DNA from: a virus | Lineage: Duplodnaviria; Heunggongvirae; Uroviricota; Caudoviricetes | DNA: 39,063 bases | Strand: one strand, 5' to 3' | Virus record (IMG/VR): IMGVR_UViG_3300029305_011318 | Part shown: piece after piece, positions 12,302-33,700 of the stretch | How positions within the stretch are numbered: position 1 is the first letter of the stretch | Layout of the letters: each line of letters begins with the position of its first letter | Made by a program: the position numbers and the translations under genes | The notes under the pieces: model-generated | The model's database searches: none | What the model was told of the DNA's origin: nothing | What the model saw: the letters and a program-made list of their open reading frames with translations, nothing else

Positions 12302-12345
12302 AAAATCTCCTTTCTTTGTTTGATTATAAAAAATGCTTCTATTTT

Positions 12346-19168: not shown

Positions 19169-19714
19169 TTATGATGCTATTTGTTTTGCATTATTACAAT
19201 ACATGGTTGTTTTTGTAACTTTACTATATCCGGAACCATATGTGTTTTGAAATTTTTCAAAATTTTTGTTGGTCAAAAATACGTAGGGCATATTATTTAA
19301 TGGTGTTTGAAATTCATTATAGGATTTAATATGTAATGTAATATTTTTTCCACCATCTATATTTAATTCTGTATATGGTGTACCATTAGATGTATATCTT
19401 GTTTTCGTGTTTTTAATTTTTTCTTGCGGAATCACGATTCCGGCTAATAATTTATTATCATAAGGCATTTGATATACTTTTATTTTATTATATGCTAACA
19501 ATGATTCCATAATATATACTTCAAAATTATCATTCTCTAATTGTTTGCCTAAAATAATAACATCATTATATTCTGTTTCAATAACATTACCTAATAAATG
19601 TAATTTTTTGCGAACCAAACCACCATTTTGTGATGTAGTATAACTTACATCAGTTGGAGATACTAATCGTCCTACAATAATTCCGTATCCATCTGAAAAT
19701 AAACTTGCTTTCAT
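19169..19714 (-). CDS. Hypothetical protein (possible OB-fold/SSB-like N-terminus)
   Basis: RBS AGAAAGGA; IIVGRLVSPTDVSYT loosely resembles SSB beta-1. Confidence 0.6.
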   Translation of the reverse strand: MKASLFSDGYGIIVGRLVSPTDVSYTTSQNGGLVRKKLHLLGNVIETEYNDVIILGKQLENDNFEVYIMESLLAYNKIKVYQMPYDNKLLAGIVIPQEKIKNTKTRYTSNGTPYTELNIDGGKNITLHIKSYNEFQTPLNNMPYVFLTNKNFEKFQNTYGSGYSKVTKTTMYCNNAKQIAS

Positions 19715-19766
19715 TTATATATTATCCTTTCTAAAAATATAGAAGTAAAAATACAATCTTTATTTT

Positions 19767-19790
19767 TATATGGGTAAAGTTTTCTCAAAA
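19767..19790 (-). promoter_or_regulatory. Copy of recurrent 24-bp promoter-like motif
   Basis: Minus strand TTTTGAGAAAACTTTACCCATATA. Confidence 0.65.
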
Positions 19791-19841
19791 CATAGTTTAT
19801 TCCCTATGTAACGGAATATATATTTTTATTACTATTTTAAA

Positions 19842-19915
19842 ATACATCTAAGGGGAGTCGAACCCCTATTTTAAAGTTCGTAGCTTTAACGTTTATCCAT
19901 TAGCTTATAGATGTA
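19842..19915 (-). tRNA. tRNA-Arg(ACG)
   Basis: Cloverleaf; acceptor TACATCT/AGATGTA; anticodon loop CT-ACG-AA. Confidence 0.85.
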
Positions 19916-19918
19916 TAA

Positions 19919-19991
19919 CTAGCGGTATAGGATTTGAACCTATATTGTCGGAGTCAAAGTCCGATGTCATAACCAATTAGACCAACTGCCA
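19919..19991 (-). tRNA. tRNA-Gln(TTG)
   Basis: TCGGA-CT TTG AC-TCCGA; T-arm ATAGG-TTCAAAT-CCTAT. Confidence 0.88.
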
Positions 19992-19998
19992 ATATAAA

Positions 19999-20087
19999 CG
20001 CCGTACCTGGGATTCGAACCCAGAAACCAAATGAATGATTACCGGTTTAGCAAACCGGAGGGGTGCCAATTACCTTTATAATACGGC
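19999..20087 (-). tRNA. tRNA-Ser(GCT)
   Basis: CCGGT-TT GCT AA-ACCGG; long variable arm. Confidence 0.8.
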
Positions 20088-20092
20088 ATGAG

Positions 20093-20165
20093 AGACTCCG
20101 GTGGGATTTGAACCCACGAAAAACAGTTTTGCAGACTGTTGCCTTAACCATTGGGCTACGAAGTC
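20093..20165 (-). tRNA. tRNA-Cys(GCA)
   Basis: ACAGT-CT GCA AA-ACTGT; discriminator U. Confidence 0.9.
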
Positions 20166-20169
20166 CTAA

Positions 20170-20241
20170 TATCCCCAGAACGATTTGAACGTTCAAATGC
20201 GGGGTAGAAACCCGGTGTTTTATCCATTAGACTATGGGGAC
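20170..20241 (-). tRNA. tRNA-Arg(TCT)
   Basis: Acceptor GTCCCCA/TGGGGAT; anticodon loop TT-TCT-AC. Confidence 0.85.
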
Positions 20242-20247
20242 ATAAAA

Positions 20248-20318
20248 CAGAAAATGTAGGAGTCGAACCCACGCTTTTGGTTTTGGAGACCAACGTGCTA
20301 CCATTACACCAATCATCT
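20248..20318 (-). tRNA. tRNA-Trp(CCA)
   Basis: TTGGT-CT CCA AA-ACCAA. Confidence 0.85.
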
Positions 20319-20480
20319 ATGTGCAATTCCTTAATTAAATTAAAATATGTCTAGCGAAGTAAAGGTCCGTTTCGTAAATCAGCATTGTACACTACTGACT
20401 CCATATTTTTTCATTAAGACATTGTTATTCTTTGTGAGGATTCTGCCACTCTCACATCAGTTAGGAGCGACCTAACAATA

Positions 20481-20569
20481 CGCTATCTTAGGGATTTGAA
20501 CCCCAACTGCGATTCAAGCCGCAGACTACGGTTTTCAAGACCGATGCAATACCATTCTGCCAAGATAGC
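20481..20569 (-). tRNA. tRNA-Ser(TGA)
   Basis: Loop CT-TGA-AA; long variable arm; discriminator G. Confidence 0.88.
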
Positions 20570-20575
20570 TTATAG

Positions 20576-20647
20576 TCCGAATGATAGGATTTGAACCTAT
20601 GACTCTCGGTATATCAGACCGATGCTCTACCACTGAACTACATTCGG
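20576..20647 (-). tRNA. tRNA-Ile(GAT)
   Basis: TCGGT-CT GAT AT-ACCGA; acceptor CCGAATG/CATTCGG. Confidence 0.9.
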
Positions 20648-20652
20648 ATAAT

Positions 20653-20695
20653 AAAAAAAGAGATAATTTATCAAACTTATGATAAATTATCTCTT
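20653..20695 (-). terminator. Terminator/attenuator hairpin directly upstream of tRNA cluster A
   Basis: Perfect 16-bp stem AAGAGATAATTTATCA/TGATAAATTATCTCTT followed by a U-run. Confidence 0.85.
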
Positions 20696-20763
20696 ATAAA
20701 AGAAAGAAAAGCTGAAAAAATGTAAAGTTGGAGATAGTTACATAATTATTTAAAGCATTGTAA

Positions 20764-20871
20764 TTAATCATAAGAAAAATATTTAATTGCAGAACAAATA
20801 GAACTACATGACTGTTGCCATCTAATTTGCGAACAACTTTGTGCAATTCGAATTCGTTTGAAATTAAACAT
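20764..20871 (-). CDS. Leader micro-ORF A (35 aa) MFNFKRIRIAQSCSQIRWQQSCSSICSAIKYFSYD
   Basis: RBS AAGGAG 8 nt before the ATG. It contains codons read by all 8 tRNAs of the downstream cluster. Confidence 0.75.
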   Translation of the reverse strand: MFNFKRIRIAQSCSQIRWQQSCSSICSAIKYFSYD

Positions 20872-20987
20872 ATCGCTTTCTCCTTATAATTTTTGTTAAA
20901 TGCCTGGGCATAATAACTATGCCCAAACATCTGACAAACAACGCAACGTATTTCCCAAAAGAGTTATAGCACATAACTCTCTATCTT

Positions 20988-21011
20988 TATATGTATAAAA
21001 TTTTGTCAAAA
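20988..21011 (-). promoter_or_regulatory. Copy of recurrent 24-bp promoter-like motif (upstream of leader A and tRNA cluster A)
   Basis: Minus strand TTTTGACAAAATTTTATACATATA. Confidence 0.7.
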
Positions 21012-21259
21012 CTTTTCAAAAAAATAACAAAATTTAAAAAAAATAATAAATTTTATTTATCAATTTCGTATTCTTCATTATTTAAATCAATATTGTGGTT
21101 ATTAATAGAAAAAATTATTTGTTTTTTATTTTTATTAGTTAAAATTTTATCCTCTTATATATTGATTATTTTCCTATATTTTGTAAATCAAAACTTTCAC
21201 AAATAATATCTGTTGCCATATCTTCATCTACAGTATGTAATCCAGGATAATATTGACCT

Positions 21260-21748
21260 TTAATCTAATGAAATATCTTCCATTTCTTGATTTAATTCAA
21301 TTTCAGCTTCTTTTTCATAACACCAAGCTCTCATTAATTGTAATCCTTTTTTGCATAATGCAATTTCATCTGATGTAATATTATGATAATTAGCAGTATC
21401 CGGATACCGAACATTATAATATAAACTTTCTATCTTTTTAACATGGGTGCGTAAATTTTCTGAGGCTTGAATATCAAAACGTCGTTGTAATTCAGAAAAC
21501 ATAGCATGAATATTATGCCCAAATGTTTTATATTGTTTTTGATTAAATGAATTTGTCGTTTTATATGTTAATTTATTAATATCTTGTGGTTCAATATTAT
21601 GCGCCTTACATAAAATATGTTTTGCATATTTTTCAATGGCTTGTTGTGTAATATAACCAATGGCATTAGAGTCATTAAATTTAAGCAATTCAATAACGGT
21701 TTTATAATCATTTTCTGCAGCATGAAGCCAATTTAATTGCGTTTCCAT
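21260..21748 (-). CDS. HEPN-domain protein
   Basis: WLHAAENDY...GYITQQAIEKYAK...GHNI...YYNVRYP, typical of MNT-associated HEPN proteins. Confidence 0.82.
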   Translation of the reverse strand: METQLNWLHAAENDYKTVIELLKFNDSNAIGYITQQAIEKYAKHILCKAHNIEPQDINKLTYKTTNSFNQKQYKTFGHNIHAMFSELQRRFDIQASENLRTHVKKIESLYYNVRYPDTANYHNITSDEIALCKKGLQLMRAWCYEKEAEIELNQEMEDISLD

Positions 21749-21978
21749 AATAATACTACCTCTTCTTCATCATCTTTAAAAGAAAAAGGAGCAAAATGGA
21801 GTGTTTCTGGGTCGTTAAAAATTTGTAAATTTATAATTTGATTCATAATATCCATATGGTCATTGGGAGTATTATTTGTAACATAATAAAACGTATCGGA
21901 ACTTACCGATTCATATACCTCTAATAAATATGTAATATTATTAAATAAATCTATTTTTTTTTGCATAATAATCTCCAT
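21733..21978 (-). CDS. Small acidic hypothetical protein overlapping the HEPN start (possible partner)
   Basis: 16-nt overlap with the HEPN gene; upstream promoter motif; no GSxARG MNT motif. Confidence 0.6.
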   Translation of the reverse strand: MEIIMQKKIDLFNNITYLLEVYESVSSDTFYYVTNNTPNDHMDIMNQIINLQIFNDPETLHFAPFSFKDDEEEVVLLWKRN

Positions 21979-21997
21979 TTTTATTTCTTTATATTGT

Positions 21998-22021
21998 TAT
22001 ATGTATAAATTTATCTCAAAG
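21998..22021 (-). promoter_or_regulatory. Copy of recurrent 24-bp promoter-like motif
   Basis: Minus strand CTTTGAGATAAATTTATACATATA. Confidence 0.62.
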
Positions 22022-22227
22022 ATACTTGTTTTATTATTCTAAATCAATTATATATTTCATAAACATAAAAAACAAATTATTGAATAAATAAGGGATATAG
22101 AATATATCTATACCCCCAGGTAGCGTCCGAAGAACCGAGTCTGCAGCCTCTACATCTTTTACAAAATTTCCAGCCAAGGTCATGACTCCTTTACCAAAAA
22201 AACGTAAACATGATGAACTACCACACA

Positions 22228-22300
22228 TGGAACATATGAGATTTGAACTCATGACCCCCTACTTGCAAGGCAGGTGCTCTCCCAACTGAGCTAATGCCCC
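22228..22300 (-). tRNA. tRNA-Ala(TGC)
   Basis: GGGGCAT acceptor with G3:U70; CCTGC-CT TGC AA-GTAGG. Confidence 0.92.
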
Positions 22301-22440
22301 AAATTGACTGGCTACCTCTCAAAACCAGTCGGACTTGGACTTCTCACCCGTAGGCTTCACTCTTGCCTTATCGGTTCACATACATCCAATATAACCACAA
22401 TTATTTATAAGTGAATCGTCAAGAGGTTTTTATTATAAAA

Positions 22441-22676
22441 AACAAATAGTAAGTGATTTCCGTTATTGCAAACGCAAGGCACAGTATAGCACCTTATGAA
22501 CAGTCGGTTCTTCGTATTTCAACGAATCCTATTTCACATGCCGGTTTCATCCAGATTTCTTGGCTCTTTTCCGGTCTTATCCTCTTGTTAATAGAGTCCC
22601 CACTTTTCCTTACAGTCTCCTTTTATTTTCGTTTCAGTAAGTGCTACTTGTAGTCAGATAAACCCTTTTGCAACTA
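22441..22676 (-). ncRNA. Candidate structured non-coding RNA, family unknown
   Basis: GC-enriched, with no supported ORF. Nested pairings CAAATAGT/ACTATTTG, TGCAAA/TTTGCA and GTAGCAC/GTGCTAT; internal hairpin TTCGT-TGAAAT-ACGAA. Confidence 0.5.
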
Positions 22677-22685
22677 TTTGTATTT

Positions 22686-23969
22686 TTATTCTTTTAATAA
22701 TTCTTTATATTTTTTAATTTTATGATTTTCATAAGTGTTTTTATAATCCGTTAAATATTGAATTAGGTCTTGTCCTATTAAACGTTTTTGTTGTAATTCT
22801 CGTAAAAATGATTTTTTTTCTTCATACATAGTAAGTAAAAATTCTTTACGATTCAACGTTAACCCTCTACATTGATTAAAGATATTTTGAACTTCTTCTT
22901 TGGTTGGTAATTTATCAATATTAATCAATGAAAAGTTTTTCACATGACTTAAACATTCAAATTCGGTATTATATAAACCATTTACTGTAGTTTCAACTAA
23001 ATTTTCTGGATATTCGCCCTCTTTAGTTTTTGAACTTCCATTATCAAAAATTGGTGCTGGGCTTATAAATTTTAATGTTTCGGAATTTCGTAAAAATCCA
23101 ATATTTCCTTGATGTCTATCTCTATTTGAAATTAAAAAATCCACAATTGTTTGTATATCTAAATAGTTATGCGTTTCTTGTTTGCTTAATCCATAATGAG
23201 ATGCTAATTCAACAATTTTATCCCAGATGTTATCAAGTTGTGTCATGTTATATTCTTCTAATAAATCATACGCAGATACAAATTCTATATTTTCATTAGT
23301 AAAACATTGACATATACAACCTATGATATTATTTGTTTTGTCATATACAAAATCATAATTACAGAAATTATTATATCCTTGTTTACGATAAATTAAAGAC
23401 GCAATAATTTCACGAGCAATTAAAATATCATATTGCATATCAATTTTTTTACAAAGCATAATATCTTGGTCTTTTTTATACCAAAATTTTTCTAATTGTC
23501 CTCCTAATGTAGAATTATGACCTTTATAAATATGATTGTTATCTTTAACAGTATAAAATTCATCAAGCGATTTAAATTTATCTTGAATATCTTTCCATGT
23601 TAAATTCTCTTTTTCTGATTCAATCCAATAACAATCATTAAAAGAATATCCATTGTTTTCTAACAACCATTTACGAGGAGAATAATCTTTTTGAATATAA
23701 GAATCGTAATTGTAACGATTAATTGGAATTTCTCTATCTGATAACCATCCATCAAATAAAATACAGCCATCTTCATTAAGAATAATATAATTATTATCTT
23801 CTGATTTAGATTCTATAAATTCAATATCATACCCTGGTTTTATTAATCGTTTTAATGGCAATGGTAGGGAATCTAAATATTGTGTGTTAATAATACAGGA
23901 GGTAATATCTTTATGTAAAGTTTCAAAAACAGCAAGATTAATATCTTTATGTTTTAATGTATATAACAT
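22686..23969 (-). CDS. HipA-like (HipA_C) Ser/Thr kinase
   Basis: STLGGQLEKFW; AREIIAS; DFLISNRDRHQGNIGF; APIFDNGSS. Confidence 0.85.
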   Translation of the reverse strand: MLYTLKHKDINLAVFETLHKDITSCIINTQYLDSLPLPLKRLIKPGYDIEFIESKSEDNNYIILNEDGCILFDGWLSDREIPINRYNYDSYIQKDYSPRKWLLENNGYSFNDCYWIESEKENLTWKDIQDKFKSLDEFYTVKDNNHIYKGHNSTLGGQLEKFWYKKDQDIMLCKKIDMQYDILIAREIIASLIYRKQGYNNFCNYDFVYDKTNNIIGCICQCFTNENIEFVSAYDLLEEYNMTQLDNIWDKIVELASHYGLSKQETHNYLDIQTIVDFLISNRDRHQGNIGFLRNSETLKFISPAPIFDNGSSKTKEGEYPENLVETTVNGLYNTEFECLSHVKNFSLINIDKLPTKEEVQNIFNQCRGLTLNRKEFLLTMYEEKKSFLRELQQKRLIGQDLIQYLTDYKNTYENHKIKKYKELLKE

Positions 23970-23981
23970 AATATATTCCTC

Positions 23982-24116
23982 CTATTTGGATTGATTTACA
24001 CGAAATTTGTTTATAGCATATTGAATAATATACTGTTTATCTTTTTTTTCGTTTGATTGATGTTGTTTTAATAAACTTGTTAATTTTTCTTTATCAGAAT
24101 TTATTTTCATAATCAT
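23982..24116 (-). CDS. Small ORF (44 aa) MIMKINSDKEKLTSLLKQHQSNEKKDKQYIIQYAINKFRVNQSK immediately upstream of the HipA-like kinase
   Basis: RBS AAAAGGA. Its stop codon overlaps the AGGAGG RBS of the kinase gene. Confidence 0.55.
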   Translation of the reverse strand: MIMKINSDKEKLTSLLKQHQSNEKKDKQYIIQYAINKFRVNQSK

Positions 24117-24181
24117 GTCCTTTTGTAATATAAATTAATATGTATTATACCACAAACAACACTATAAAAATATATTTTGGA

Positions 24182-24222
24182 AAAATTCCCTCTATATTGA
24201 AATATAATATAGGGGGAATTAT
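24182..24222. terminator. Intrinsic terminator
   Basis: AATTCCCTCTATATT/AATATAGGGGGAATT hairpin. Confidence 0.75.
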
Positions 24223-24223
24223 T

Positions 24224-24334
24224 TTACTTGGATTTTGTAGTTTTCTTCAATTTTTCTTTTTCTTTGTCTAATTCGTTCTTCATTTTTTTATGAAGACTAC
24301 CAATTTTTCCAACTGGTTTACAAGAAAGACCCAT
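24224..24334 (-). CDS. Small basic protein (36 aa) MGLSCKPVGKIGSLHKKMKNELDKEKEKLKKTTKSK
   Basis: RBS AAGGAG; own promoter motif upstream and terminator downstream. Confidence 0.65.
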   Translation of the reverse strand: MGLSCKPVGKIGSLHKKMKNELDKEKEKLKKTTKSK

Positions 24335-24382
24335 AATATACCTTCTCCTTTGTAATTTATAATTAAATTGTATTTACATGTA

Positions 24383-24406
24383 TATATGTTTAAAATCTTC
24401 TCAAAA
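24383..24406 (-). promoter_or_regulatory. Copy of recurrent 24-bp promoter-like motif
   Basis: Minus strand TTTTGAGAAGATTTTAAACATATA. Confidence 0.68.
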
Positions 24407-24442
24407 TCTTTAAAAATTTACTAAAATTTTAAAAAATAAAAA

Positions 24443-24519
24443 TGCCTTGTGTTGGAGTCGAACCAACTTCTCTGGATTTTCAGTCCAGTGCATGAAATTA
24501 CCGAATCTGCTTACAAGGC
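24443..24519 (-). tRNA. tRNA-Phe(GAA)
   Basis: CTGGA-CT GAA AA-TCCAG; acceptor GCCTTGT/ACAAGGC. Confidence 0.88.
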
Positions 24520-24566
24520 TAGGTAAAGTCAATGATTTCTTTACCTTTGCTAAATCGTTGTTTCAT
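24519..24566 (-). CDS. Micro-ORF (15 aa) MKQRFSKGKEIIDFT abutting tRNA-Phe
   Basis: RBS AGAAAGGA; CGA-TTT at codons 4-5; the G of the TAG stop is tRNA nucleotide 1. Confidence 0.62.
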   Translation of the reverse strand: MKQRFSKGKEIIDFT

Positions 24567-24603
24567 ATACTATTATCCTTTCTATATTTTTTTGATTACA
24601 TTT

Positions 24604-24885
24604 CTAATATAATATACATTGATTTACTAATTTTTCTACTAATTCTCGGTCAATTGGTCTTACACAGTGTCTACAATGCATCAAATATTGCACCAAGAAA
24701 AGTGCTCGTTCTTCAATTTGAACTTTTTCATATTCTAAAAAATAAACATTGTATTTGTGTAATAGTTTAAAAATATCGCTTCTGACAGGACCAACCTCTG
24801 CATCTTTGTTACCAAGAAACATTTTTGTAATTTCTCGGTTAAATTCCATCCTTTTATTCAGATTGTTCATTATATAAATCCCCAT
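24604..24885 (-). CDS. Hypothetical protein within the tRNA array
   Basis: 93-aa ORF filling the spacer between tRNA-Leu(TAG) and the Phe micro-ORF. Confidence 0.6.
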   Translation of the reverse strand: MGIYIMNNLNKRMEFNREITKMFLGNKDAEVGPVRSDIFKLLHKYNVYFLEYEKVQIEERALFLVQYLMHCRHCVRPIDRELVEKLVNQCILY

Positions 24886-24941
24886 ACCAAATCATTTGTG
24901 CATATTTGTTTTCTTTTCTATATATAAGTTTTTATATCAAA

Positions 24942-25023
24942 TACGGGTAATGGGAGTCGAACCCATAAGTAATTAAACCACTATATCCTAAGTATAGCCT
25001 CTGTTCCATTCGAGTACACCCGC
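24942..25023 (-). tRNA. tRNA-Leu(TAG)
   Basis: CTATA-CT TAG GA-TATAG; long variable arm; A73. Confidence 0.87.
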
Positions 25024-25029
25024 TTAAAG

Positions 25030-25093
25030 TACCCGAAGTTGGATTTAAACTAATAATATTATGATTTTAAATCATACATGTATTATTCGGGTA
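25030..25093 (-). pseudogene. Degenerate tRNA-like element lacking a D-arm (TAA anticodon-like loop)
   Basis: TACCCGAA/TTCGGGTA closing stem; TATGA-TTTAAAA-TCATA hairpin; degraded T-loop TTTAAAT. Confidence 0.5.
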
Positions 25094-25096
25094 TAG

Positions 25097-25179
25097 TACA
25101 CCCGATGAGATTCGAACTCACATGAGCAAGCTCCTTAGATTTTAAGTCTAATGCGTATACCAAGTTCCGCCACGGGTGC
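25097..25179 (-). tRNA. tRNA-Leu(TAA)
   Basis: TTAGA-CT TAA AA-TCTAA; Leu-type D-loop; long variable arm. Confidence 0.9.
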
Positions 25180-25185
25180 ATAATA

Positions 25186-25227
25186 TTATGTTTTGGTTAA
25201 TAAAGATAATAATTGGAGTCGCAACAT
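25186..25227 (-). CDS. Micro-ORF (13 aa) MLRLQLLSLLTKT upstream of the tRNA-Leu genes
   Basis: RBS AGAAAGGA; codons TTG CGA CTC CAA TTA TTA TCT TTA TTA; stop 6 nt before tRNA-Leu(TAA). Confidence 0.7.
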   Translation of the reverse strand: MLRLQLLSLLTKT

Positions 25228-25257
25228 ATTATGTTCCTTTCTATAATAAAAGTTGAG

Positions 25258-25328
25258 TTGCTATAACCAGGTTCGAACTGATTACACTATCCTTATGAGG
25301 GACAGCCGCTTCCACTAGCGTTATAGCA
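25258..25328 (-). tRNA. tRNA-Met/Ile2 (CAT)
   Basis: Loop CT-CAT-AA; acceptor TGCTATA/TATAGCA. Met versus Ile2 cannot be resolved by eye. Confidence 0.75.
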
Positions 25329-25337
25329 ATATGAATA

Positions 25338-25409
25338 AGCACATGAAGGGAGTTGAACCCTCGCTTCTTGCTTGGAAGGCAAGCGTCATAGCCGTTAGAC
25401 CACATATGC
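25338..25409 (-). tRNA. tRNA-Gly(TCC)
   Basis: CTTGC-CT TCC AA-GCAAG; U73. Confidence 0.9.
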
Positions 25410-25525
25410 ATATATTAGGCTAATAAGAAAATCAGTCTTTTCCACTCATAATATAGACTATTCGCTTCTTTTTTCTATGATTAAACTCTGTTGTTCTATT
25501 CATAAATTCTCTTTGATATTTTAAC

Positions 25526-25597
25526 TAGGAAGGGAGGGAATCGAACCCTCGACAACCCGCTTATAAGACGTGCTTTCTGCCACTGAATTACCTTCCC
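25526..25597 (-). tRNA. tRNA-Ile(TAT)
   Basis: Loop CT-TAT-AA; acceptor GGGAAGG/CCTTCCT; T-arm GAGGG-TTCGATT-CCCTC. Confidence 0.82.
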
Positions 25598-25638
25598 GTA
25601 TTTTTGTAAATATGGTTCGGTATTCGTATTCGTTTCAT
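25588..25638 (-). CDS. Micro-ORF (16 aa) MKRIRIPNHIYKNTGR running into tRNA-Ile(TAT)
   Basis: RBS AGAAAGG; codons AAA CGA ATA CGA ATA; the last 10 nt overlap the tRNA 5' end. Confidence 0.68.
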   Translation of the reverse strand: MKRIRIPNHIYKNTGR

Positions 25639-25671
25639 AAATATTATTACCTTTCTTATTTATAATAGAAA

Positions 25672-25745
25672 TAGCGGGAGTAGGATTCGAACCTACGTAT
25701 CCAAGGTTATGAGCCTTGTGAGCATCCTCTACTCGTCATCCCGCA
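25672..25745 (-). tRNA. tRNA-Met(CAT), initiator-like
   Basis: GG-CTCATAA-CC anticodon arm; mismatched 1:72 pair; only two G-C pairs at the stem base. Confidence 0.78.
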
Positions 25746-25750
25746 TATAG

Positions 25751-25823
25751 TGACTCCTGCCGGACTTGAACCGAGCATTACATCCTTGAAAGGGATGTGT
25801 CCTAACCTCTAGACCAAGGAGCC
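25751..25823 (-). tRNA. tRNA-Glu(TTC)
   Basis: CATCC-CT TTC AA-GGATG. Confidence 0.88.
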
Positions 25824-25969
25824 AAATAATAAATTGACTAAGGTTGGTTTTAACAGTTCCAACAACTTTGTACTTTTTATACTGCACCACGCAGTTTGTG
25901 TAGTCCCTCACAATTCTTATTATTCTAATAAGCAACTATCTTAAACATGTGCACATCCATTTTAGAAAG

Positions 25970-26043
25970 AGCCGATAGAGGGACTTGAACCCCCAACAAT
26001 CTGCTTACAAGGCAGTCGCTCTACCAATTGGAGCTATATCGGC
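25970..26043 (-). tRNA. tRNA-Thr(TGT)
   Basis: Loop CT-TGT-AA; acceptor GCCGATA/TATCGGC. Confidence 0.9.
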
Positions 26044-26075
26044 AAATAACTGATTCGTTACATTTTGGTTATTTA

Positions 26076-26789
26076 TTACCCCATTGCTCTACGACACACT
26101 CTTTTTTCAAGTAATGGCGTATCGATTTCAAAATAACCATTAATTATACGGTCATATTGAAACCATTGTGTTTCAGATGGAATAGGTTTAGAAATACCTT
26201 CTTCAAATGCTTCAATACATGCATATTGATAACATGTTTCATTTAAATCTGTTAAATTAAAATGTAATGCTTCAATGGCATTCAATTTATCGGTATAAAA
26301 TCCCCATACTCTACTTGCTCCATGATTATTAAATCCAGCAGGTCGTCTTTCGATTTCACCATTTTCATTTTGTTTTTCATATATAACTTCTTCTAATGTT
26401 TCGCACACATAAATGGTATAAATTTTGTGTGTATTTGTTTTTTGTGTGTTTAATCGAATAAAAGCAAGAATTTTATCCGATGGTAAATCGAATTCACATA
26501 TGTAATGAAAATTAATCGTATCTTTTAAAGATTTCCCATTTGTAGATAATATATCTTGATAATTCGTTGGGTTTTTTTTGTACGAAACTATATCTACAAT
26601 TGTACCTAATGTTAAATTGTCCATAGATTTTTCTTTATCTTCGATAATAACAGTGGAGGCTACAATTTGTCTTATATCATGCCATAAACCATGTACTTTA
26701 TATTGTGGATGATTTGTAGTAATTGTAATCTGTGGCATAAAATATTTTTGGATGTCTTTTTGAGATAACATATAAATTGCCTCCATCAA
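26076..26789 (-). CDS. Hypothetical protein within the tRNA array
   Basis: 237-aa ORF. A GGAGG RBS suggests the real start is the internal MLSQK. Confidence 0.75.
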   Translation of the reverse strand: MMEAIYMLSQKDIQKYFMPQITITTNHPQYKVHGLWHDIRQIVASTVIIEDKEKSMDNLTLGTIVDIVSYKKNPTNYQDILSTNGKSLKDTINFHYICEFDLPSDKILAFIRLNTQKTNTHKIYTIYVCETLEEVIYEKQNENGEIERRPAGFNNHGASRVWGFYTDKLNAIEALHFNLTDLNETCYQYACIEAFEEGISKPIPSETQWFQYDRIINGYFEIDTPLLEKRVCRRAMG

Positions 26790-26814
26790 AAATAATAAAA
26801 TCGTTTTGGATTAA

Positions 26815-26900
26815 GGGTGAAAGATGAGACTTGAACTCACAAGGGCATTTACCCGCCGGAACCACAATCCGGTGCGTTTACCAATTCCGCCACTAACACC
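26815..26900 (-). tRNA. tRNA-His(GTG) with a long variable arm
   Basis: CCGGA-TT GTG GT-TCCGG; G-1:C73; Leu-like D-loop; extra arm CGGG-TAAATG-CCC. Confidence 0.82.
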
Positions 26901-27065
26901 ATATGTAAGGGTGACACTAAGCATATGACTACAACCGAATCATCTACAGTCATAATCAATCTTCTCCGAGGTTTTACCCCTTACTATTTTATCAAGGCAC
27001 AACTTGATAAACCTTAGACATAAGTTTTTTGTATAGAAATCTTGTACTACTCTATACATGCTTCG

Positions 27066-27139
27066 TTGGAATAGTGGGATTCGAACCCACACATTCTCCC
27101 ATCCAACGGGAGTTGGCTACCAATTACCTCTATATTCCA
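27066..27139 (-). tRNA. tRNA-Pro(TGG)
   Basis: CTCCC-GT TGG AT-GGGAG; T-arm GTGGG-TTCGAAT-CCCAC. Confidence 0.82.
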
Positions 27140-27235
27140 TTAACATTATCAGTTAATACTTTTAATTCAGATGTCTTATATGGTAATCCATATTTTTTAC
27201 ACCATTTTCTATCATTACACCACATTCTCGCTATA

Positions 27236-27487
27236 TTATGCAGAAATGTATTCTGTTTCATAATCTTTCATATCTGCAGATACGATTTCTTTGTCTTTCA
27301 TTTCTGCAATAGTTGGTAAATTATAATGCTTACCATATTTACATAATTTGCAGCTACAATGAATTTTATTTTTTGAATATTGTCCATCATGTTCATACCA
27401 ATTATCTCTATAAATAGCATGACAAATGGCTTTTTTACGCATGATGTGTTTATTTCGTAAACGTCTTCGTTCTGCTCTATAATGCAT
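27236..27487 (-). CDS. Small basic Cys/His-containing hypothetical protein
   Basis: RBS AGGAGA; HCSCKLC motif. Confidence 0.72.
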   Translation of the reverse strand: MHYRAERRRLRNKHIMRKKAICHAIYRDNWYEHDGQYSKNKIHCSCKLCKYGKHYNLPTIAEMKDKEIVSADMKDYETEYISA

Positions 27488-27516
27488 AAGGTATCTCCTA
27501 TAATGGTGTTTTATAA

Positions 27517-27597
27517 TGCGTCTGACAGGATTCGAACCTGCGATGGATTGCTCCCACGGATTAAAAGTCCGGTGCCCTACCTCTAGGCGACAGACGC
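27517..27597 (-). tRNA. tRNA-Lys(TTT) with an enlarged variable region
   Basis: Loop CT-TTT-AA; acceptor GCGTCTG/CAGACGC; extra hairpin GGA-GCAA-TCC. Confidence 0.85.
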
Positions 27598-27639
27598 TTA
27601 TGGTTTTCGTACTTTTGATTTACGTTTTCGTTTCTTCAT
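27598..27639 (-). CDS. Micro-ORF (13 aa) MKKRKRKSKVRKP abutting tRNA-Lys(TTT)
   Basis: RBS AGAAAGGA; codons AAG AAA CGA AAA CGT AAA TCA AAA GTA CGA AAA; the TAA directly precedes tRNA nucleotide 1. Confidence 0.72.
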   Translation of the reverse strand: MKKRKRKSKVRKP

Positions 27640-27825
27640 AATAATATGTTTCCTTTCTATTTCTTAATTTTTAATTACTAGGCTCCCAATCTGCTACTCT
27701 ATATATAATGGTTCATTACAAATGTTTCTAGCTAATCATCTTGTAATATAATATATATTTCATTGGTTGATTTAAGGTGCAGTTTCGCCTCGGTTCTTAT
27801 GTTAAACTGAACTCCACCTAGTAAA

Positions 27826-27897
27826 TGCCTAATGAGGGATTCGAACCTACAACTTTTCGGTTAACAGCCGCTTGCTCTACCATTGAACTACACGCCC
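27826..27897 (-). pseudogene. Chimeric/defective tRNA-Asn(GTT)
   Basis: Normal D and anticodon arms, but 5' GGGCGTG does not pair with 3' ATTAGGC and T-stem GTAGG does not pair with CCCTC. Confidence 0.72.
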
Positions 27898-27937
27898 AAA
27901 AAAATACCACCTATTACATCATATAATAAGTGGTATC
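27898..27937 (-). terminator. Terminator/attenuator directly abutting tRNA cluster B
   Basis: 13-bp stem ATACCACTTATTA/TAATAGGTGGTAT plus U6, ending at tRNA-Asn nucleotide 1. Confidence 0.85.
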
Positions 27938-28001
27938 TTTTCATTAATCTAAGAAAGTGAGATATTTATCTGGGCAAACATATTGTTTGTTCCATTTATT
28001 A

Positions 28002-28127
28002 TTATACAATGAAATGGTCTATATCTTTATTTGATTGTTTGTTTTTATCCATAGGGAAATAAAAGCTTTTTTCAAGCCCACGTTCTAAATTCATAGTATT
28101 AATTGTATTTTTTACCATGTTTATCAT
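28002..28127 (-). CDS. Leader micro-ORF B (41 aa) MINMVKNTINTMNLERGLEKSFYFPMDKNKQSNKDIDHFIV
   Basis: RBS AGAAAGG; lies between the promoter motif and the attenuator hairpin. Confidence 0.68.
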   Translation of the reverse strand: MINMVKNTINTMNLERGLEKSFYFPMDKNKQSNKDIDHFIV

Positions 28128-28227
28128 AACTTTTCCCTTTCTGTTTGTTTCTTAATATTACTATACGGTAATTTTTATTTTTTGAAAGTATTTTTCAAAA
28201 ATTTTTTATTTTTTTCTTATCTATGTA

Positions 28228-28251
28228 TATATGTATAAAAATTTCTCAAAA
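28228..28251 (-). promoter_or_regulatory. Copy of recurrent 24-bp promoter-like motif (upstream of leader B and tRNA cluster B)
   Basis: Minus strand TTTTGAGAAATTTTTATACATATA. Confidence 0.7.
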
Positions 28252-28283
28252 ATCATCAAAAAATAGATAATTTTTAAAATTTT

Positions 28284-29003
28284 TTATTTTTTTTCATATT
28301 CTTCAATACAATCTGCAATACTTTCTAAGTCTTGCCGACTAAAAACATCTGTTAATAATGTATAAGTTGCATTATCGAAATATTTTAAATAATGTCCTTT
28401 CATAATATATCCAAGGGGTGCTGTTTTAGAAAATATATGTGCAAATCCATTTTCTTTTGGATTTTCAAAAACTGATAATTTTCGATAACTATATGGCTGT
28501 ACATCCATCGGAATGGTTTTATAAGAGGACATTAGTTTTATTAATGAAAATCGATTATCTAAATAGATAGATAATAAATCATTCATTTTATATAATGGGT
28601 TCATCAAAATTAAAGATAATCCGGTTGTATAAATTATATTAGATAATGAATTAGTTTCATGTGTTAAAAAATGATGATGGTAAAATAACGTATATGTAGT
28701 TGGTTGTATTTGTTGACCAAATACAATTGGAGAATATTCTTGAATACCAAAATCTAATATTTGATTATTTAAAGTAAGCCAAATATGGTCTTTTGTATTA
28801 TCTTTCCATAATTGTGGAATAGATATTTGTCCATAATGTAAAATTGGTTTATATCCATATTCACATAACAAAATATATAACGCAATATTCGTTAAAACAT
28901 TTGTATCTTCCGGAATATTCTCATAAGCATGAAATAACAAATTTTGTAATACTTTATCATGCGAAATATTTTTGTGCAAAATTTGATTTATTGTTAATGA
29001 CAT
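28284..29003 (-). CDS. Hypothetical protein
   Basis: 239-aa ORF with RBS GAGGA. Confidence 0.7.
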   Translation of the reverse strand: MSLTINQILHKNISHDKVLQNLLFHAYENIPEDTNVLTNIALYILLCEYGYKPILHYGQISIPQLWKDNTKDHIWLTLNNQILDFGIQEYSPIVFGQQIQPTTYTLFYHHHFLTHETNSLSNIIYTTGLSLILMNPLYKMNDLLSIYLDNRFSLIKLMSSYKTIPMDVQPYSYRKLSVFENPKENGFAHIFSKTAPLGYIMKGHYLKYFDNATYTLLTDVFSRQDLESIADCIEEYEKK

Positions 29004-29346: not shown

Positions 29347-29378
29347 AAAAAAAGATACGACTTAAATCGTATCTTTTT
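29347..29378. terminator. Intrinsic terminator
   Basis: AAAAGATACGA-CTTAAA-TCGTATCTTTT. Confidence 0.82.
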
Positions 29379-30570
29379 CATCATATTCTTCTATTTTATT
29401 TATTTCATAATCTAAAGTATTATTTTTATCTTTAATAGGGATTTGTAATTCTTTTGCTCTTTCCATAAAAGATTGATATTGTCTATCTGTCAAAAACAAA
29501 TCTCTTGTAATGGGTTTTGTAAAATGAAAATCTACATGTTTCATGGCTTCTTTTGCAGTTTCATAAATAGATTCTCCGGTTAATTGATATTTGGCATTTT
29601 TATCTCGCATATAAGCAATATCAAACGCATTATTATGGTCGTACAAAGGATGACAACCTAATATTTCCATTGTATTACAATTATAGAAAAATCCCCAATT
29701 CATACCATGCCTATCACGATTACTAATTAAATAATCAACTATCATCATTTTATACATAGAATCCGGGTCTATTTTAATGGCTTCTCGTAATGTATCTAAT
29801 CCTTGTTGGTTACAATACGAATAAAAATCAACACCCGGTAAAATAGCAATATCTTCTGTTGTCATACATTTACATTTTACAGTATCTAAGATTTCATTTG
29901 TTTGTACATCCATAGATGTGCTCATTTCATAATGAAGATGTTCAACATTACAACAATCTAAAATATTGCTGCACATAGCTTCAATTTTTGATTCCCAAGA
30001 ACCATTTGCACCTAATTTATGTAAGTATAATCCATCTTCTTCTCTCTTCCATGCTTTTGCATAGGCTCCTTGTCCTGTTAATTCCGGTGTGGTTAAATTT
30101 CCATCTAAAGATAAACTACTGCCATGTAAAGATACTTGAATAACCACTTCACTTAATGAATTGGTTCGTAAATTAACATCTTCCCAAGTTTTAGTATCGC
30201 CTTCTAATTTTACCCAATAATTATCTTGTAAGGATACTGCCCGACATAATAATGCTATTTTGGCTTTATCATAATCAGATTGCAATTGTTCTAAATTAAA
30301 TAATGTGTAAATTTTCTTTGCATTATCACGAGTAATAGGTAATACCCGATGTGCTAAAAATGACTTTATTGAATCGTTATTAGCATTATTAACGATAGTG
30401 GCTTGCGTAACGTCATATTTAAAATTACCGGTTAATGGTTTATGTTCACGTAATCTATATTTTAATGTAAATGGAATTAATTGTTTATTTAATACATCAT
30501 ATTTACCTTCATCAAAATTAATTTGCATAACCGGTTCATTTTTCATCATTAATAATAAATCTCTTGCCAT
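29362..30570 (-). CDS. Second HipA-like (HipA_C) Ser/Thr kinase
   Basis: PELTGQGAYAKAW; DYLISNRDRHGMNWGF; HPLYDHNNAF; RBS AAGGAGAGG. Confidence 0.85.
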   Translation of the reverse strand: MARDLLLMMKNEPVMQINFDEGKYDVLNKQLIPFTLKYRLREHKPLTGNFKYDVTQATIVNNANNDSIKSFLAHRVLPITRDNAKKIYTLFNLEQLQSDYDKAKIALLCRAVSLQDNYWVKLEGDTKTWEDVNLRTNSLSEVVIQVSLHGSSLSLDGNLTTPELTGQGAYAKAWKREEDGLYLHKLGANGSWESKIEAMCSNILDCCNVEHLHYEMSTSMDVQTNEILDTVKCKCMTTEDIAILPGVDFYSYCNQQGLDTLREAIKIDPDSMYKMMIVDYLISNRDRHGMNWGFFYNCNTMEILGCHPLYDHNNAFDIAYMRDKNAKYQLTGESIYETAKEAMKHVDFHFTKPITRDLFLTDRQYQSFMERAKELQIPIKDKNNTLDYEINKIEEYDEKDTI

Positions 30571-30705: not shown

Positions 30706-33700
30706 TTACATACTTATACGTTCTGAAATTTCCGCCATCTTCGCTTTATTTAAGCGAGTATCTCCATGAACTCGTGAAAATGAAAGATAGCCATTCATTC
30801 TGTCAATCTTAGTTAGATTACTGCTTCCGCATTTTGGACATACATCCATTTCTAACTGTTGATGACCACAATCATCACAATATGCTAATGATAAATTAAC
30901 TCCTTCATAGAATCCCATTTTCATTGCACGACGTACTAATGTTTTAATAGAATCTATATTATAATCAATTGGGTATCGTACATATTGAATTTTTCCACCA
31001 TTGAATAAATTCCAAAATCTATTTTCTAAATTTTGTTTTTCAATTGGTGTGATTTTTTCTGTAACATGACAATGAAAACTGTTAGATACATATTCTCTAT
31101 CTGATACGTTTTCAATAATGCCGAATTCTTTTCTAAATTGTGTTACTTGTTTACCCGTTAAACTTTCGGCAGGAGTCCCATATATAGCATAAAGGATATT
31201 ATCTTCTTTTTTATATTCATCTAATTTTTTATTAATATATTCCATTACTTCTAATGCAAATTGCCCATCTTCTACTATGGATTTACCATTATATAATCTT
31301 TGTAATTCGTTCAAAGCAGTAATACCAAAAGAGGCTGTTGATGATTTTAATACAGGAGCAATTTTATCATTCAAATCTAAATGCCCACCATAAAAACCAC
31401 CTTCACAAAAACCTAATGGATTCATAGATGCTTTCATATGGGATAAATGTTCATAAGTTCGTTTATGAATATTCCGTATCATTTCTAAATAATAATCTAA
31501 TTCTTCATAAAAATCTTTTCCGGTTCGTCTGGATTTTGCTAAAATCATTGGAAGATGTAAAGACACAACTCCGCAATTAAATCTTCCAACAAATACCGGT
31601 TTGTCATTTTCATCTACTGGATACATTCCACCATATTCATACCAAGGAGAAAGGAAAGCTCTACAATTATGACTATATATACCGCTAACTTCAAAATGCT
31701 CGCTATCTGTTGTAACATCATAACTATACATTTGTCTTTCTATTGGTAAGATTTCAACAATTTCCGCATACGTATTATAATGAGATGAAACTGCATCTCT
31801 ATAAAATTGACGTTTTTTTTCACAAATAATATAATTGAGCAATTCTTCTGTTGCGAAAAATTCAACTCTATAGCGAATAGCATTTGGATTATTTTTTAAA
31901 TAATGATTGTGATAAATTTTAGCGGGCATACCCAAGGCTTGTACTAATGCCATTTGTTGTAACGACAATTCTTTATTTGTGGAACCAATTTGAACAACTG
32001 AACCACCATGCGAACTTGCATTTAAATAACCATCAGCATCAATCATTCCTGCTAAAAACGCCATTTTAGATTCATAATCCCAAGAAAAAACTTCGTTAGG
32101 AATATGCCGATTAATCTTATTAATTCCGCCAAATTTTACAGTAAAATAATTTATAGTAGATTGTAAGTTATTATTTTCATCAGCTATTGCAACTAAATCT
32201 TTATATCGACCTTTCTTACCTCGTTCTTGTAAAATTGTTTTTGTTTTTAAATCAAAATATTTTGAAAAAACATAGTGGAACTTATTCTCGATTTCATCTT
32301 CTCCTTGTGCGGCTATTGACACATAAATTCTGTTAGATTGATAACAACCATCACAAAGCATAAATCCTAATAACCAAGCCTTATCTTTATTAAAAACAAT
32401 TGTTTCTTCATTATATTGGTTTGAATTTATCATAATTTTATCTGATATTTGTAAATTTTTAGCGATTATTTGACCTTTTTCAATAACTTCAAAAGGATGG
32501 TCCTCGGTACACAATAGTCGACGACCATTTGATAAATGTACATCAATCCATTTATCAGATACATTTCGTATGATTTTTTGTGTATTTACAAAACCTTTTT
32601 CAGTATCATATATCATTACATCTAATAAATTCATATACATGTGTGGTTGACCTAAAATTTGATATTGTGGTTCAAAAAAGTCCGATAGTCGTTTCCACAT
32701 TCTTTCAAAAGATTCAACATATAATTGATTTTTATATTTATATGTGATAATTTCTTTGCCATCTACGCAACCCATTGGCGAAACTACTTTTCCATATTTT
32801 TTATACATTTCTGCCACATAACCATCACCAGTTAAACTTAACCAGTCAGGATACATGGTTTTTGCAGAACATTGTATTCCTACCTCAAAAACATCTTCTA
32901 AAACTTTTCCAGGTCCATGTAAATTTTCATCATACAGGAAAACCAATTTCGGAAATAAAACCGGTTTTTTATGACCTTTTTTACCTTGACCATTCATTCT
33001 AGTTCTTAAAATAGATTTGGAAATCTCTTTACCCCATTTGGAAGTATTTAATCCAAAAGTTGCGGTAATAAATGGATAATCTCCACGGCTAGAAGCTACG
33101 GTATTAAATTTGTATTCCCAGCCTTGAAATCCTTGGTCTATATCTTTACATACTTTTTTTGTTGCATATTCATTAGCATCTTGTGATAAATTAATACCAT
33201 ACGCATCATATTCAATATTATGTTGTTGCATAATATCTAAATATTCATTATAATATCTTTGATATGATTTTTCGGCATATGGCTCTAATATAAAATCTAC
33301 TTCCGGAAGTGTGAAACCTCCATACTGCTGACTCGCGGCCATTAATGTAATATCTCCAATCACATCAAATGCAGTATCAATTGTTTTAGGTTCATTATAC
33401 CAAACATTTCCCATTTCAAATCCACCAGTAAGAATAGACTGAATATCGCAGAGACAGCAATTCATGGTATCAAGTCTGGCACCTTTATCATGAGGATAGA
33501 TATAACCTTCTGCCGCCGCTTTCCGTTCATCTGCATTAAGAAAATATTCTTCATATTGTGCTGTCTCTAAAATATCTAATTTTTTGACTCTTTTAGTAGA
33601 GACTAATGATGAATCTGCATTGGAATTGGATTTATCTCCTAAAAATTGAATAGCATTACATTCGGCTGTTACTTTAGCATTCATTTGTGCTTCTCGTTTA

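Follow-up and report, generated by a model that had tools for sequence, protein, structure and literature searches.

Codon-matched short reading frames joined to phage tRNA genes as candidate sensors of single-tRNA supply

The window analyzed here is a 39,063-nucleotide (nt) stretch of DNA from a gut virus of the class Caudoviricetes (IMG/VR record IMGVR_UViG_3300029305_011318), and the elements in question are four micro-open reading frames (micro-ORFs) of 13-16 codons, each lying just before or running into a tRNA gene that reads codons contained in the micro-ORF. We propose that these micro-ORFs are translated, cis-acting sensors of single-codon decoding capacity that tune the output of the adjoining tRNA genes, a reading drawn from sequence to which we assign a probability of roughly 0.55. 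The cognate match recurs across phages, and the comparative data put chance out of question as its source. An earlier sequence-only reading had described six such ORFs, four matched to single tRNA loci and two placed as operon leaders, and had suggested that they control the element's own tRNA genes by the logic of leader-peptide attenuation; the computational tests lend support to its sensing interpretation. The four cassettes, each with a Shine-Dalgarno (SD) sequence, are:

Lys cassette: 27517-27658, minus strand; SD 27652-27658, micro-ORF 27598-27639, tRNA-Lys(UUU) 27517-27597.
Ile cassette: 25526-25656, minus strand; SD 25650-25656, micro-ORF 25588-25638, tRNA-Ile(UAU) 25526-25597.
Leu cassette: 24942-25242, minus strand; SD 25236-25242, micro-ORF 25186-25227, tRNA-Leu(UAA) 25096-25179, a 63-nt tRNA-like gene 25030-25092, tRNA-Leu(UAG) 24942-25023.
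Phe cassette: 24443-24583, minus strand; SD 24577-24583, micro-ORF 24519-24566, tRNA-Phe(GAA) 24443-24519.

The six ORFs were all recovered at their stated coordinates on the minus strand, which also carries every tRNA gene in the window, and a recount confirmed the codon content first reported for the four micro-ORFs. The Lys micro-ORF (MKKRKRKSKVRKP) holds AAA five times and AAG once, with the pair CGA-AAA occurring twice, and its stop codon directly adjoins nucleotide 1 of the tRNA. The Ile micro-ORF (MKRIRIPNHIYKNTGR) has two ATA codons, both in CGA-ATA pairs, and overlaps its own tRNA by 10 nt so that the stop codon falls at tRNA positions 8-10. In the Phe micro-ORF (MKQRFSKGKEIIDFT) TTT occurs twice, once as CGA-TTT and once 8 nt before the tRNA, and the G of the stop codon is shared with tRNA nucleotide 1. 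The Leu micro-ORF (MLRLQLLSLLTKT), which has six Leu codons (TTA four times) and one CGA-CTC pair, ends 6 nt upstream of its tRNA, the other three reaching or entering theirs. The ribosome binding sites reported earlier also hold: AGAAAGG stands 8-11 nt upstream of the ATG of the four micro-ORFs and of the longer leader B, and AAGGAG precedes leader A (both leaders are described below). Ten of the 11 AGAAAGG copies in the window lie on the minus strand, and the heptamer is also found upstream of real genes at 12309, 19726 and 33979. Presumably its partner is the very 3' terminus of the Firmicute 16S rRNA, which would account for the wider gap between SD and ATG.

All four window cassettes fit a common design: SD and ATG lie 33-54 nt before the tRNA, the frame is open, and the first 2-7 codons include cognate ones, in most cases behind CGA. 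The first cognate codon stands 19-53 nt, and for the most part 25-40 nt, before tRNA position +1. With codon usage in 22 long ORFs as background, the within-window codon match is significant for Lys (6/12, P=8.6e-5) and Leu (5/12, P=1.2e-3), with Ile (2/15, P=0.14) and Phe (2/14, P=0.13) above the usual threshold. No intrinsic terminator was found between ORF and tRNA in any of the four cassettes by terminator scan and folding, the sole minus-strand terminator candidate near them (24705-24690) sitting upstream of the Phe cassette. Fold prediction likewise gave no mutually exclusive antiterminator over the ORFs: the A-rich leader regions are predicted to be unstructured and single-stranded, and the tRNA cloverleaf folds independently and unaffected. 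Having neither a terminator nor an alternative fold, the four cassettes are not classical attenuators.

Relatives were sought to assess these features beyond a single sequence. Near relatives of the window were absent from GenBank phages and IMG/VR, whether by DNA or by three proteins; in GenBank phages the Lys and Phe cassettes had no homologue outside the tRNA body, and a profile scan of metagenome contigs gave no matches. A 237-amino-acid (aa) array protein led to five loci (L001-L005; 44-62% identity) with different tRNA arrays and no micro-ORFs, which are too distant to be informative on micro-ORF conservation. Because close relatives were lacking, we used pattern scans that left open the features being tested. 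A first pattern, AGAAAGG...ATGAAACGA, retrieved mostly ordinary genes starting MKR, and with them the first cassette outside the window (L080). A second, AGAAAGG-N7-11-ATG-N80-110-GGTTCGAATCC, with ORF, codon and tRNA unconstrained, gave 35 loci, among which L080, L137 and L144 carry SD-led (A)AA-CGA-AAA ORFs ending on tRNA-Lys(UUU). The third, ATGAAACGA-N75-105-GGTTCGAATCC, was run on IMG/VR and GTDB contigs with the codon after CGA and the tRNA free; after removal of duplicates, 24 loci combined a Lys codon with tRNA-Lys, 78 had neither, and 6 and 6 were mixed (Fisher p=8.5e-14). Where an SD was present and the ORF ended close to the tRNA, 21 of 22 matches were cognate, as opposed to 2 of 49 without an SD. 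When the codon after CGA was instead limited to NTN, the tRNA again being free, CGA-ATA was recovered before tRNA-Ile(UAU) in the L159 family, L211 and L310, and CGA-TTT before tRNA-Phe in L171; at L182, also with CGA-ATA, ARAGORN called no tRNA, and a CTTATAA loop is visible. All non-matching loci of the NTN scan lack an SD. Rejected as family members were the SD-less loci L157, L160 and L188, in which a promoter-like TTG...TATAAT precedes tRNA-Ser, and the SD-less L174 (Cys) and L205 (CAU).

Loci fetched through the Lys cassette also carry Ile, Leu, Phe and Tyr cassettes that had not been searched for, and 12 uncultured, phage-like contigs, the window included, have at least two cassette families. 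These contigs come from IMG/VR, from one metagenome contig, and from contigs of GTDB metagenome-assembled genomes titled Lachnospiraceae, Ruminococcus and Acetatifactor; genes flanking the cassettes in relatives have matches to PHROG families. Homologues of the Lys cassette comprise 21 distinct sequences, and the Ile cassette has homologues in L349, L413, L310, L211 and L450, of which the units in L349, L413 and L450 are unselected. Unselected Leu units (L413, L424, L349) head runs of 2-4 Leu isoacceptors and contain both UUR and CUN codons, and unselected Phe units, found at nine loci, have CGA-TTT in all. A new Tyr family occupies seven loci (e.g. MESYYYEKTDYY, MEEYYYYQK), mostly ending exactly at tRNA-Tyr, with a run of Tyr codons instead of CGA-X as its test site. 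The window Lys and Phe cassettes are 72-80% identical to their homologues in alignments that span SD, ORF and tRNA. Homologous Phe ORFs differ from one another by indels of 3 nt, and in a five-phage alignment of Phe cassettes AACGATTTAG is invariant while the tRNA acceptor stems differ. This conservation spans GC contents of 29% to 41%.

Codon content follows the downstream anticodon in these relatives. For the label shuffle we took 43 non-Lys SD-led ORFs, noise included, on loci not selected via their own codons; 65 codons were cognate, as against 20.4 +/- 5.3 after shuffling of the anticodon labels (maximum 46 in 20,000 shuffles, p<5e-5), so that the matching proposed earlier exceeds its shuffled controls. 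At the level of families, a 5x5 matrix has diagonal values of 12-35% versus mostly 0-7% off the diagonal, and the identity assignment is the best of 120 permutations. Conservation of ORF and ribosome binding site, whose absence the sequence-only reading had named as refuting, is likewise found, whole cassettes being kept with 3-nt indels. The ATG frame runs uninterrupted to the tRNA in 21 of 21 Lys cassettes, compared with 9 of 42 for the other two frames (p=5e-10), and many of the Lys-cassette frames end inside the tRNA at U8-A9-G10.

The codon preceding the cognate codon is also distinctive. CGA makes up 0.44% of codons in the window's long ORFs, and the micro-ORFs nonetheless contain CGA-AAA and CGA-ATA twice each, CGA-TTT and CGA-CTC, with CGA-ATT twice in leader A. 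Counting only Arg codons not fixed by the scan patterns, the next codon was cognate in 34 cases and other in 6 after CGA, versus 5 and 11 after other Arg codons (p=1.8e-4). In the Phe units, TTT follows each of the 8 CGA codons, and a cognate codon follows none of the remaining 7 Arg codons (AGA, CGG, AGG). Ile codons within the first eight codons of Ile(UAU) units are ATA without exception (12/12), and leader A, with tRNA-Ile(GAU) downstream, uses ATT; the element therefore follows the isoacceptor, not just the amino acid.

The two longer ORFs had been read as operon leaders, each followed by a terminator before a tRNA cluster. A strong hairpin with a U-run does stand behind both, and the codon match is significant in leader A alone. 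The features concerned are:

Leader A: 20764-20885, minus strand; SD AAGGAG 20880-20885 and 35-codon ORF 20764-20871.
Intrinsic-terminator-like hairpin, 16 bp with U-run: 20658-20695, minus strand; 10 nt before tRNA-Ile(GAU).
Eight-tRNA cluster behind leader A (ARAGORN, Rfam): 19842-20647, minus strand; in order Ile(GAU), Ser(UGA), Trp, Arg(UCU), Cys, a 91-nt tRNA read as Ser(GCU), Gln(UUG), Arg(ACG).
Leader B: 28002-28142, minus strand; SD AGAAAGG 28136-28142 and 41-codon ORF 28002-28127.
Long terminator-like hairpin with U-run: 27898-27942, minus strand; directly adjoins the first (Asn-like) tRNA of the array.
Weak tRNA-Asn(GUU)-like gene: 27829-27896, minus strand; Rfam 28.9 bits at 27834-27890 (gathering score 29), no ARAGORN call.

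Leader A thus follows the order promoter-like box, SD, codon-matched ORF, 16-bp terminator and eight-tRNA cluster, and the genes behind it are those eight tRNAs instead of amino-acid biosynthesis or synthetase genes. Its SD lies 8 nt before the ATG, and it opens with CGA-ATT twice, the next tRNA being Ile(GAU). The eight downstream tRNAs read 20 of its 34 codons (background 19%, P=3e-7); among 20,983 stop-free 24-codon windows in six frames it scores best, and every window scoring at least 18 falls within it. The stop-codon region UGAUUAAUUA could act as an antiterminator, since 9 of its 10 positions can pair with the 5' arm of the terminator; about one such match is expected by chance on a rough estimate for A/U-rich sequence, so the pairing is not significant by itself, and in the minimum-free-energy fold the halves of the ORF pair with each other in a long hairpin (z=-4.7). 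The search for relatives yielded no homologue of leader A against which covariation could be judged.

Leader B was rejected as a codon-matched leader, since its 25/40 codons matching downstream tRNAs do not differ significantly from the 51% background (P=0.09). It has positional homologues of 50-55 codons in L349, L424 and L413, which start about 230 nt before tRNA-Asn and share with it an NTINxM-like stretch. The conserved ORF end shared by L349 and L424 (GGA-CGA-TTG-CGA-TGT-stop) shows complementarity with the 5' arm of the terminator, which suggests an attenuator-like geometry. The layout of a hairpin followed by tRNA-Asn recurs in L349, L424 and L413, and in L171 and L001 a hairpin lies directly before the first array tRNA (Thr and Lys, respectively). 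A further 10-codon ORF, MINKRKILRF, overlaps the terminator hairpin before tRNA-Met, Asn and Ile(GAU) at about 4540-4632 of L413; its first three codons name these same tRNAs, and three codons are too few to judge.

A model of how the cassettes may work follows from the reach of the frame, the distance of the first cognate codon and the unstructured leaders. The strong SD and the unstructured, A-rich leader would load ribosomes on the micro-ORF. When the cognate tRNA (tRNA-X) is scarce, the first ribosome would park on the test codon, 19-53 nt before the tRNA, and block further initiation, so that folding of the nascent tRNA and its cleavage by RNase P could proceed unhindered; the parked ribosome may also shield the 5' side of the precursor. 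Judged from estimated footprint size, a ribosome waiting at the first cognate codon would leave the RNase P site exposed and occupy its own start codon. With ample tRNA-X, ribosomes would stream into the 5' strand of the tRNA and hinder folding and 5' maturation, since in a frame that is always open to the tRNA an undelayed ribosome must enter that strand. The net effect would be homeostatic feedback on tRNA-X. Decoding by I:A wobble is inefficient in Escherichia coli, and CGA, which depends on it, could heighten the sensitivity of the following codon to tRNA supply, by analogy with yeast. There, CGA-led inhibitory codon pairs retard elongation, an effect that additional tRNA partly relieves (10.1101/755652). 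Sensory short ORFs that work without a terminator have a precedent in the polycysteine short ORFs of mycobacteria (10.1101/834739). Leader A may extend the same sensing to a whole cluster, via a conventional terminator adjoining the first of eight tRNAs. In its fullest form, for large phages of gut Clostridia and their Lys, Tyr, Phe, Leu and Ile(AUA) tRNAs, the cassettes would be ribosome-gated switches of tRNA maturation, in which CGA-X is a kinetic sensor, the output is a collision of translation with folding and RNase P, and tRNAs that are limiting or destroyed by anticodon nucleases are restored; this specific version is tentative, and we hold it to be clearly less probable than sensing as such.

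A number of observations weigh against the sensor proposal or its details. As the cassettes have neither a terminator nor a competing fold, the output step is conjectural. The Phe and Tyr units have second cognate codons at a distance of only 6-10 nt from the tRNA; a ribosome pausing at these would sit over the 5' end of the tRNA, and the simple model does not account for this. Non-cognate CGA pairs occur in a 23-codon ORF (25432-25503; CGA-ATA before Gly(UCC)) and in an 83-codon ORF (27236-27487; CGA-AGA and CGA-AAT before Pro). Micro-ORFs are missing before most tRNAs of these arrays, and the more distant relatives L001, L003 and L004 lack them altogether. In L119, L143 and L147, SD-led ORFs that end at tRNA-Lys contain hardly any Lys codons or none. 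Each cassette family may have a single origin, and truly independent codon-anticodon pairings would then number only about 5-6. The sequencing runs that contain window sequence are DNA only: six fecal metagenomes contain it in part (33-62% of sampled words), and the contig pieces listed for four of these fecal DNA runs are identical to the window, with no variation in the micro-ORFs. The two ORFs with non-cognate pairs are local counter-examples to the CGA-X rule; both lie inside the tRNA array, and the longer is Cys-rich with a basic N-terminus.

Sensing could also operate with the opposite sign or another output, if translation of the leader keeps the precursor transcribed or stable by protecting it from Rho or RNases, so that plentiful tRNA-X yields more of the array in a feed-forward manner instead of homeostasis. 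A frame that always reaches the tRNA, the late cognate codons of the Phe and Tyr units and the absence of a terminator or switch structure in the cassettes would all suit such an arrangement. We nevertheless consider it unlikely, because a phage with its own tRNA-X would seem to gain nothing from turning it off when tRNA-X runs short, and because leader A with its terminator has the classical geometry in which stalling favors read-through. Somewhat less probable again is that the micro-ORFs are translated only so that a long tRNA transcript, otherwise untranslated, stays occupied by ribosomes, or that they encode small functional peptides, with the codon match as a by-product. The peptides of the Lys units are indeed highly basic, the Phe units keep a peptide-like pattern (RFSxxK..DF), and ordinary small genes are interspersed in the tRNA array; yet the match follows the immediately adjacent tRNA among more than 20 phage tRNAs, ATA or ATT is chosen by Ile isoacceptor, CGA stands specifically before the cognate codon, and neither peptide length nor C-termini are conserved, with many frames ending at U8-A9-G10 of the tRNA.

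Codon-anticodon covariation would equally arise from an untranslated RNA element, T-box-like or a folding aid, in which a codon-like triplet pairs with the tRNA anticodon, and the invariance of AACGATTTAG at the nucleotide level is consistent with one. This is improbable given that every member has an SD, a correctly spaced ATG and in-frame test codons, that the ATG frame alone is kept open and copies differ by 3-nt indels, and that Rfam finds neither a T-box nor another family even at E<=1. Complementarity is limited to the triplet and the leaders are unstructured; extended pairing of the leader with the anticodon loop was accordingly rejected as a candidate. That the cassettes are a chance pattern, or remains of truncated genes picked post hoc, is very improbable: the within-window P values for Ile and Phe and the non-significant leader B would fit such an origin, but it is contradicted by the comparative tests of codon match, CGA, open frame and family matrix, across the whole GC range. 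Translated sensors that tune tRNA output are our preferred reading.

Several known systems share parts of this design. The leaders trpL, hisL, pheL, leuL, thrL, ilvL and pheM (before pheST) are, like the cassettes, short SD-led ORFs with regulatory codons, and in ribosome-mediated attenuators the speed of the ribosome is the signal, as is proposed for the cassettes. Leader A resembles the ilv and thr leaders in that several amino acids are sampled and a terminator lies between the ORF and the regulated genes. Unlike attenuators of the trpL/hisL type, the regulated genes here are tRNA genes, the specificity of a cassette reaches past the amino acid to the codon or isoacceptor (ATA versus ATT), the four cassettes lack both terminator and antiterminator and the ORF runs into the tRNA, and 1-2 test codons stand behind CGA in place of a long codon run (the Tyr family excepted). 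T-box riboswitches are, as the cassettes may be, cis elements that read tRNA status via a codon-like triplet, but a T-box is a structured RNA of some 200 nt that is not translated and that contains a Stem I specifier and the T-box motif, whereas the cassettes carry translation signals. A search of 19500-28600 at E<=1 found no T-box (Rfam RF00230), the only matches besides tRNA being sub-threshold Plastid-ycf2 matches antisense to tRNA genes. The bar minigenes of phage lambda are SD-led ORFs of 2-3 codons that act by peptidyl-tRNA drop-off; as in the cassettes, their translation interacts with one tRNA pool (the AUA-reading tRNA-Ile), but they are not joined to a tRNA gene. In erm and cat leader peptides and in the mycobacterial polycysteine short ORFs (10.1101/834739) a paused ribosome alters the downstream RNA without a terminator; these systems unmask the ribosome binding site of a protein gene via an RNA duplex, whereas the cassettes have a tRNA downstream and no predicted leader duplex. 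Yeast inhibitory pairs (10.1101/755652) place CGA directly before another codon, as the cassettes do, but they concern eukaryotic ribosomes and are a defect instead of a regulatory device; a corresponding effect of P-site CGA in bacteria is proposed by analogy.

We found no description of leader ORFs controlling tRNA genes in the full-text literature, including a paper on related recoded gut phages, and none of codon-specific, ribosome-read feedback on individual tRNA genes in the literature searched. tRNA genes are usually regarded as constitutively expressed or controlled by growth rate. The cross-phage cassette families, the CGA-X dicodon statistics, the rule of an open frame into the tRNA and the tracking of isoacceptors appear to be new. 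If the proposal is true, it would show how phages meter their own tRNA supply, and would provide a case of terminator-free translational control over the maturation of a non-coding RNA and a natural bacterial use of the sensitizing codon pair CGA-X. It would also bear on why phages carry tRNAs, as a shortage sensor is expected if the tRNA replaces a limiting or attacked pool. The cassettes are compact (about 130 nt) and modular and are thereby directly testable, and they could serve as sensors of single-tRNA availability.

The window has a GC content of 28.7%, with nearly all long ORFs and all tRNA genes on the minus strand. Matches to PHROG families (a RecJ-like exonuclease, a UvrD-type helicase and NrdD with an endonuclease insert) indicate a large phage-like element. 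ARAGORN called 20 tRNAs, to which Rfam adds tRNA-Phe (24443-24519, missed by ARAGORN, Rfam 57 bits), the 63-nt tRNA-like gene and the weak Asn-like gene. The 91-nt tRNA of the cluster is labeled Gly(tcc) by ARAGORN; its anticodon loop is TTGCTAA, read here as Ser(GCU). None of the window tRNA genes inspected encodes a CCA end. A sigma-70 consensus promoter scan of the window was uninformative, with fewer matches than in shuffled sequence. A phage-specific, promoter-like box heads the tRNA units:

Promoter-like box heading tRNA unit B: 28221-28260, minus strand; shared core TTTTGAnAAnnTTTTAnACATATA.

This box occurs in three copies (28221-28260, 24376-24410, 20983-21020), which head two tRNA units and the gene block after tRNA-Phe.

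Other features of the window and its relatives were also noted. The 63-nt tRNA-like gene (25030-25092, Rfam 36 bits) between tRNA-Leu(UAA) and tRNA-Leu(UAG) is very A/T-rich, with a seemingly UAA-type anticodon loop and a reduced arm. The tRNA arrays are flanked by two HipA_C-like ORFs (427 and 402 aa; 22686-23969 and 29362-30570) and a HEPN-like ORF of 162 aa (21260-21748), all with weak or faint Pfam matches, which may have a bearing on conflict directed at tRNAs or synthetases. The anaerobic ribonucleotide reductase NrdD (30706-33969) is split by an intein with a LAGLIDADG endonuclease. Stop codons seem to be recoded in relatives L001-L003: in L002 (at about 684) the counterpart of the 237-aa protein has an in-frame TAG where the window has Gln, and tRNA(UCA) suppressors lie inside the arrays of L001 (11048-11120) and L003 (10649-10721). 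The motif A(A/C)CAGGCAC(T/C) recurs in spacers of L349, L413 and L424, before tRNA-Gly(UCC) and between tRNA-Asn and the Phe cassette. Lastly, a two-hairpin element of about 60 nt, neither a tRNA nor matched by any Rfam family, lies inside the tRNA arrays of the window (20420-20478, minus strand) and of the 394-kb phage contig L171 (5164-5224, minus strand); the two copies are conserved, with a compensatory change in one stem (TTAGG/CCTAA versus TAAGG/CCTTA).

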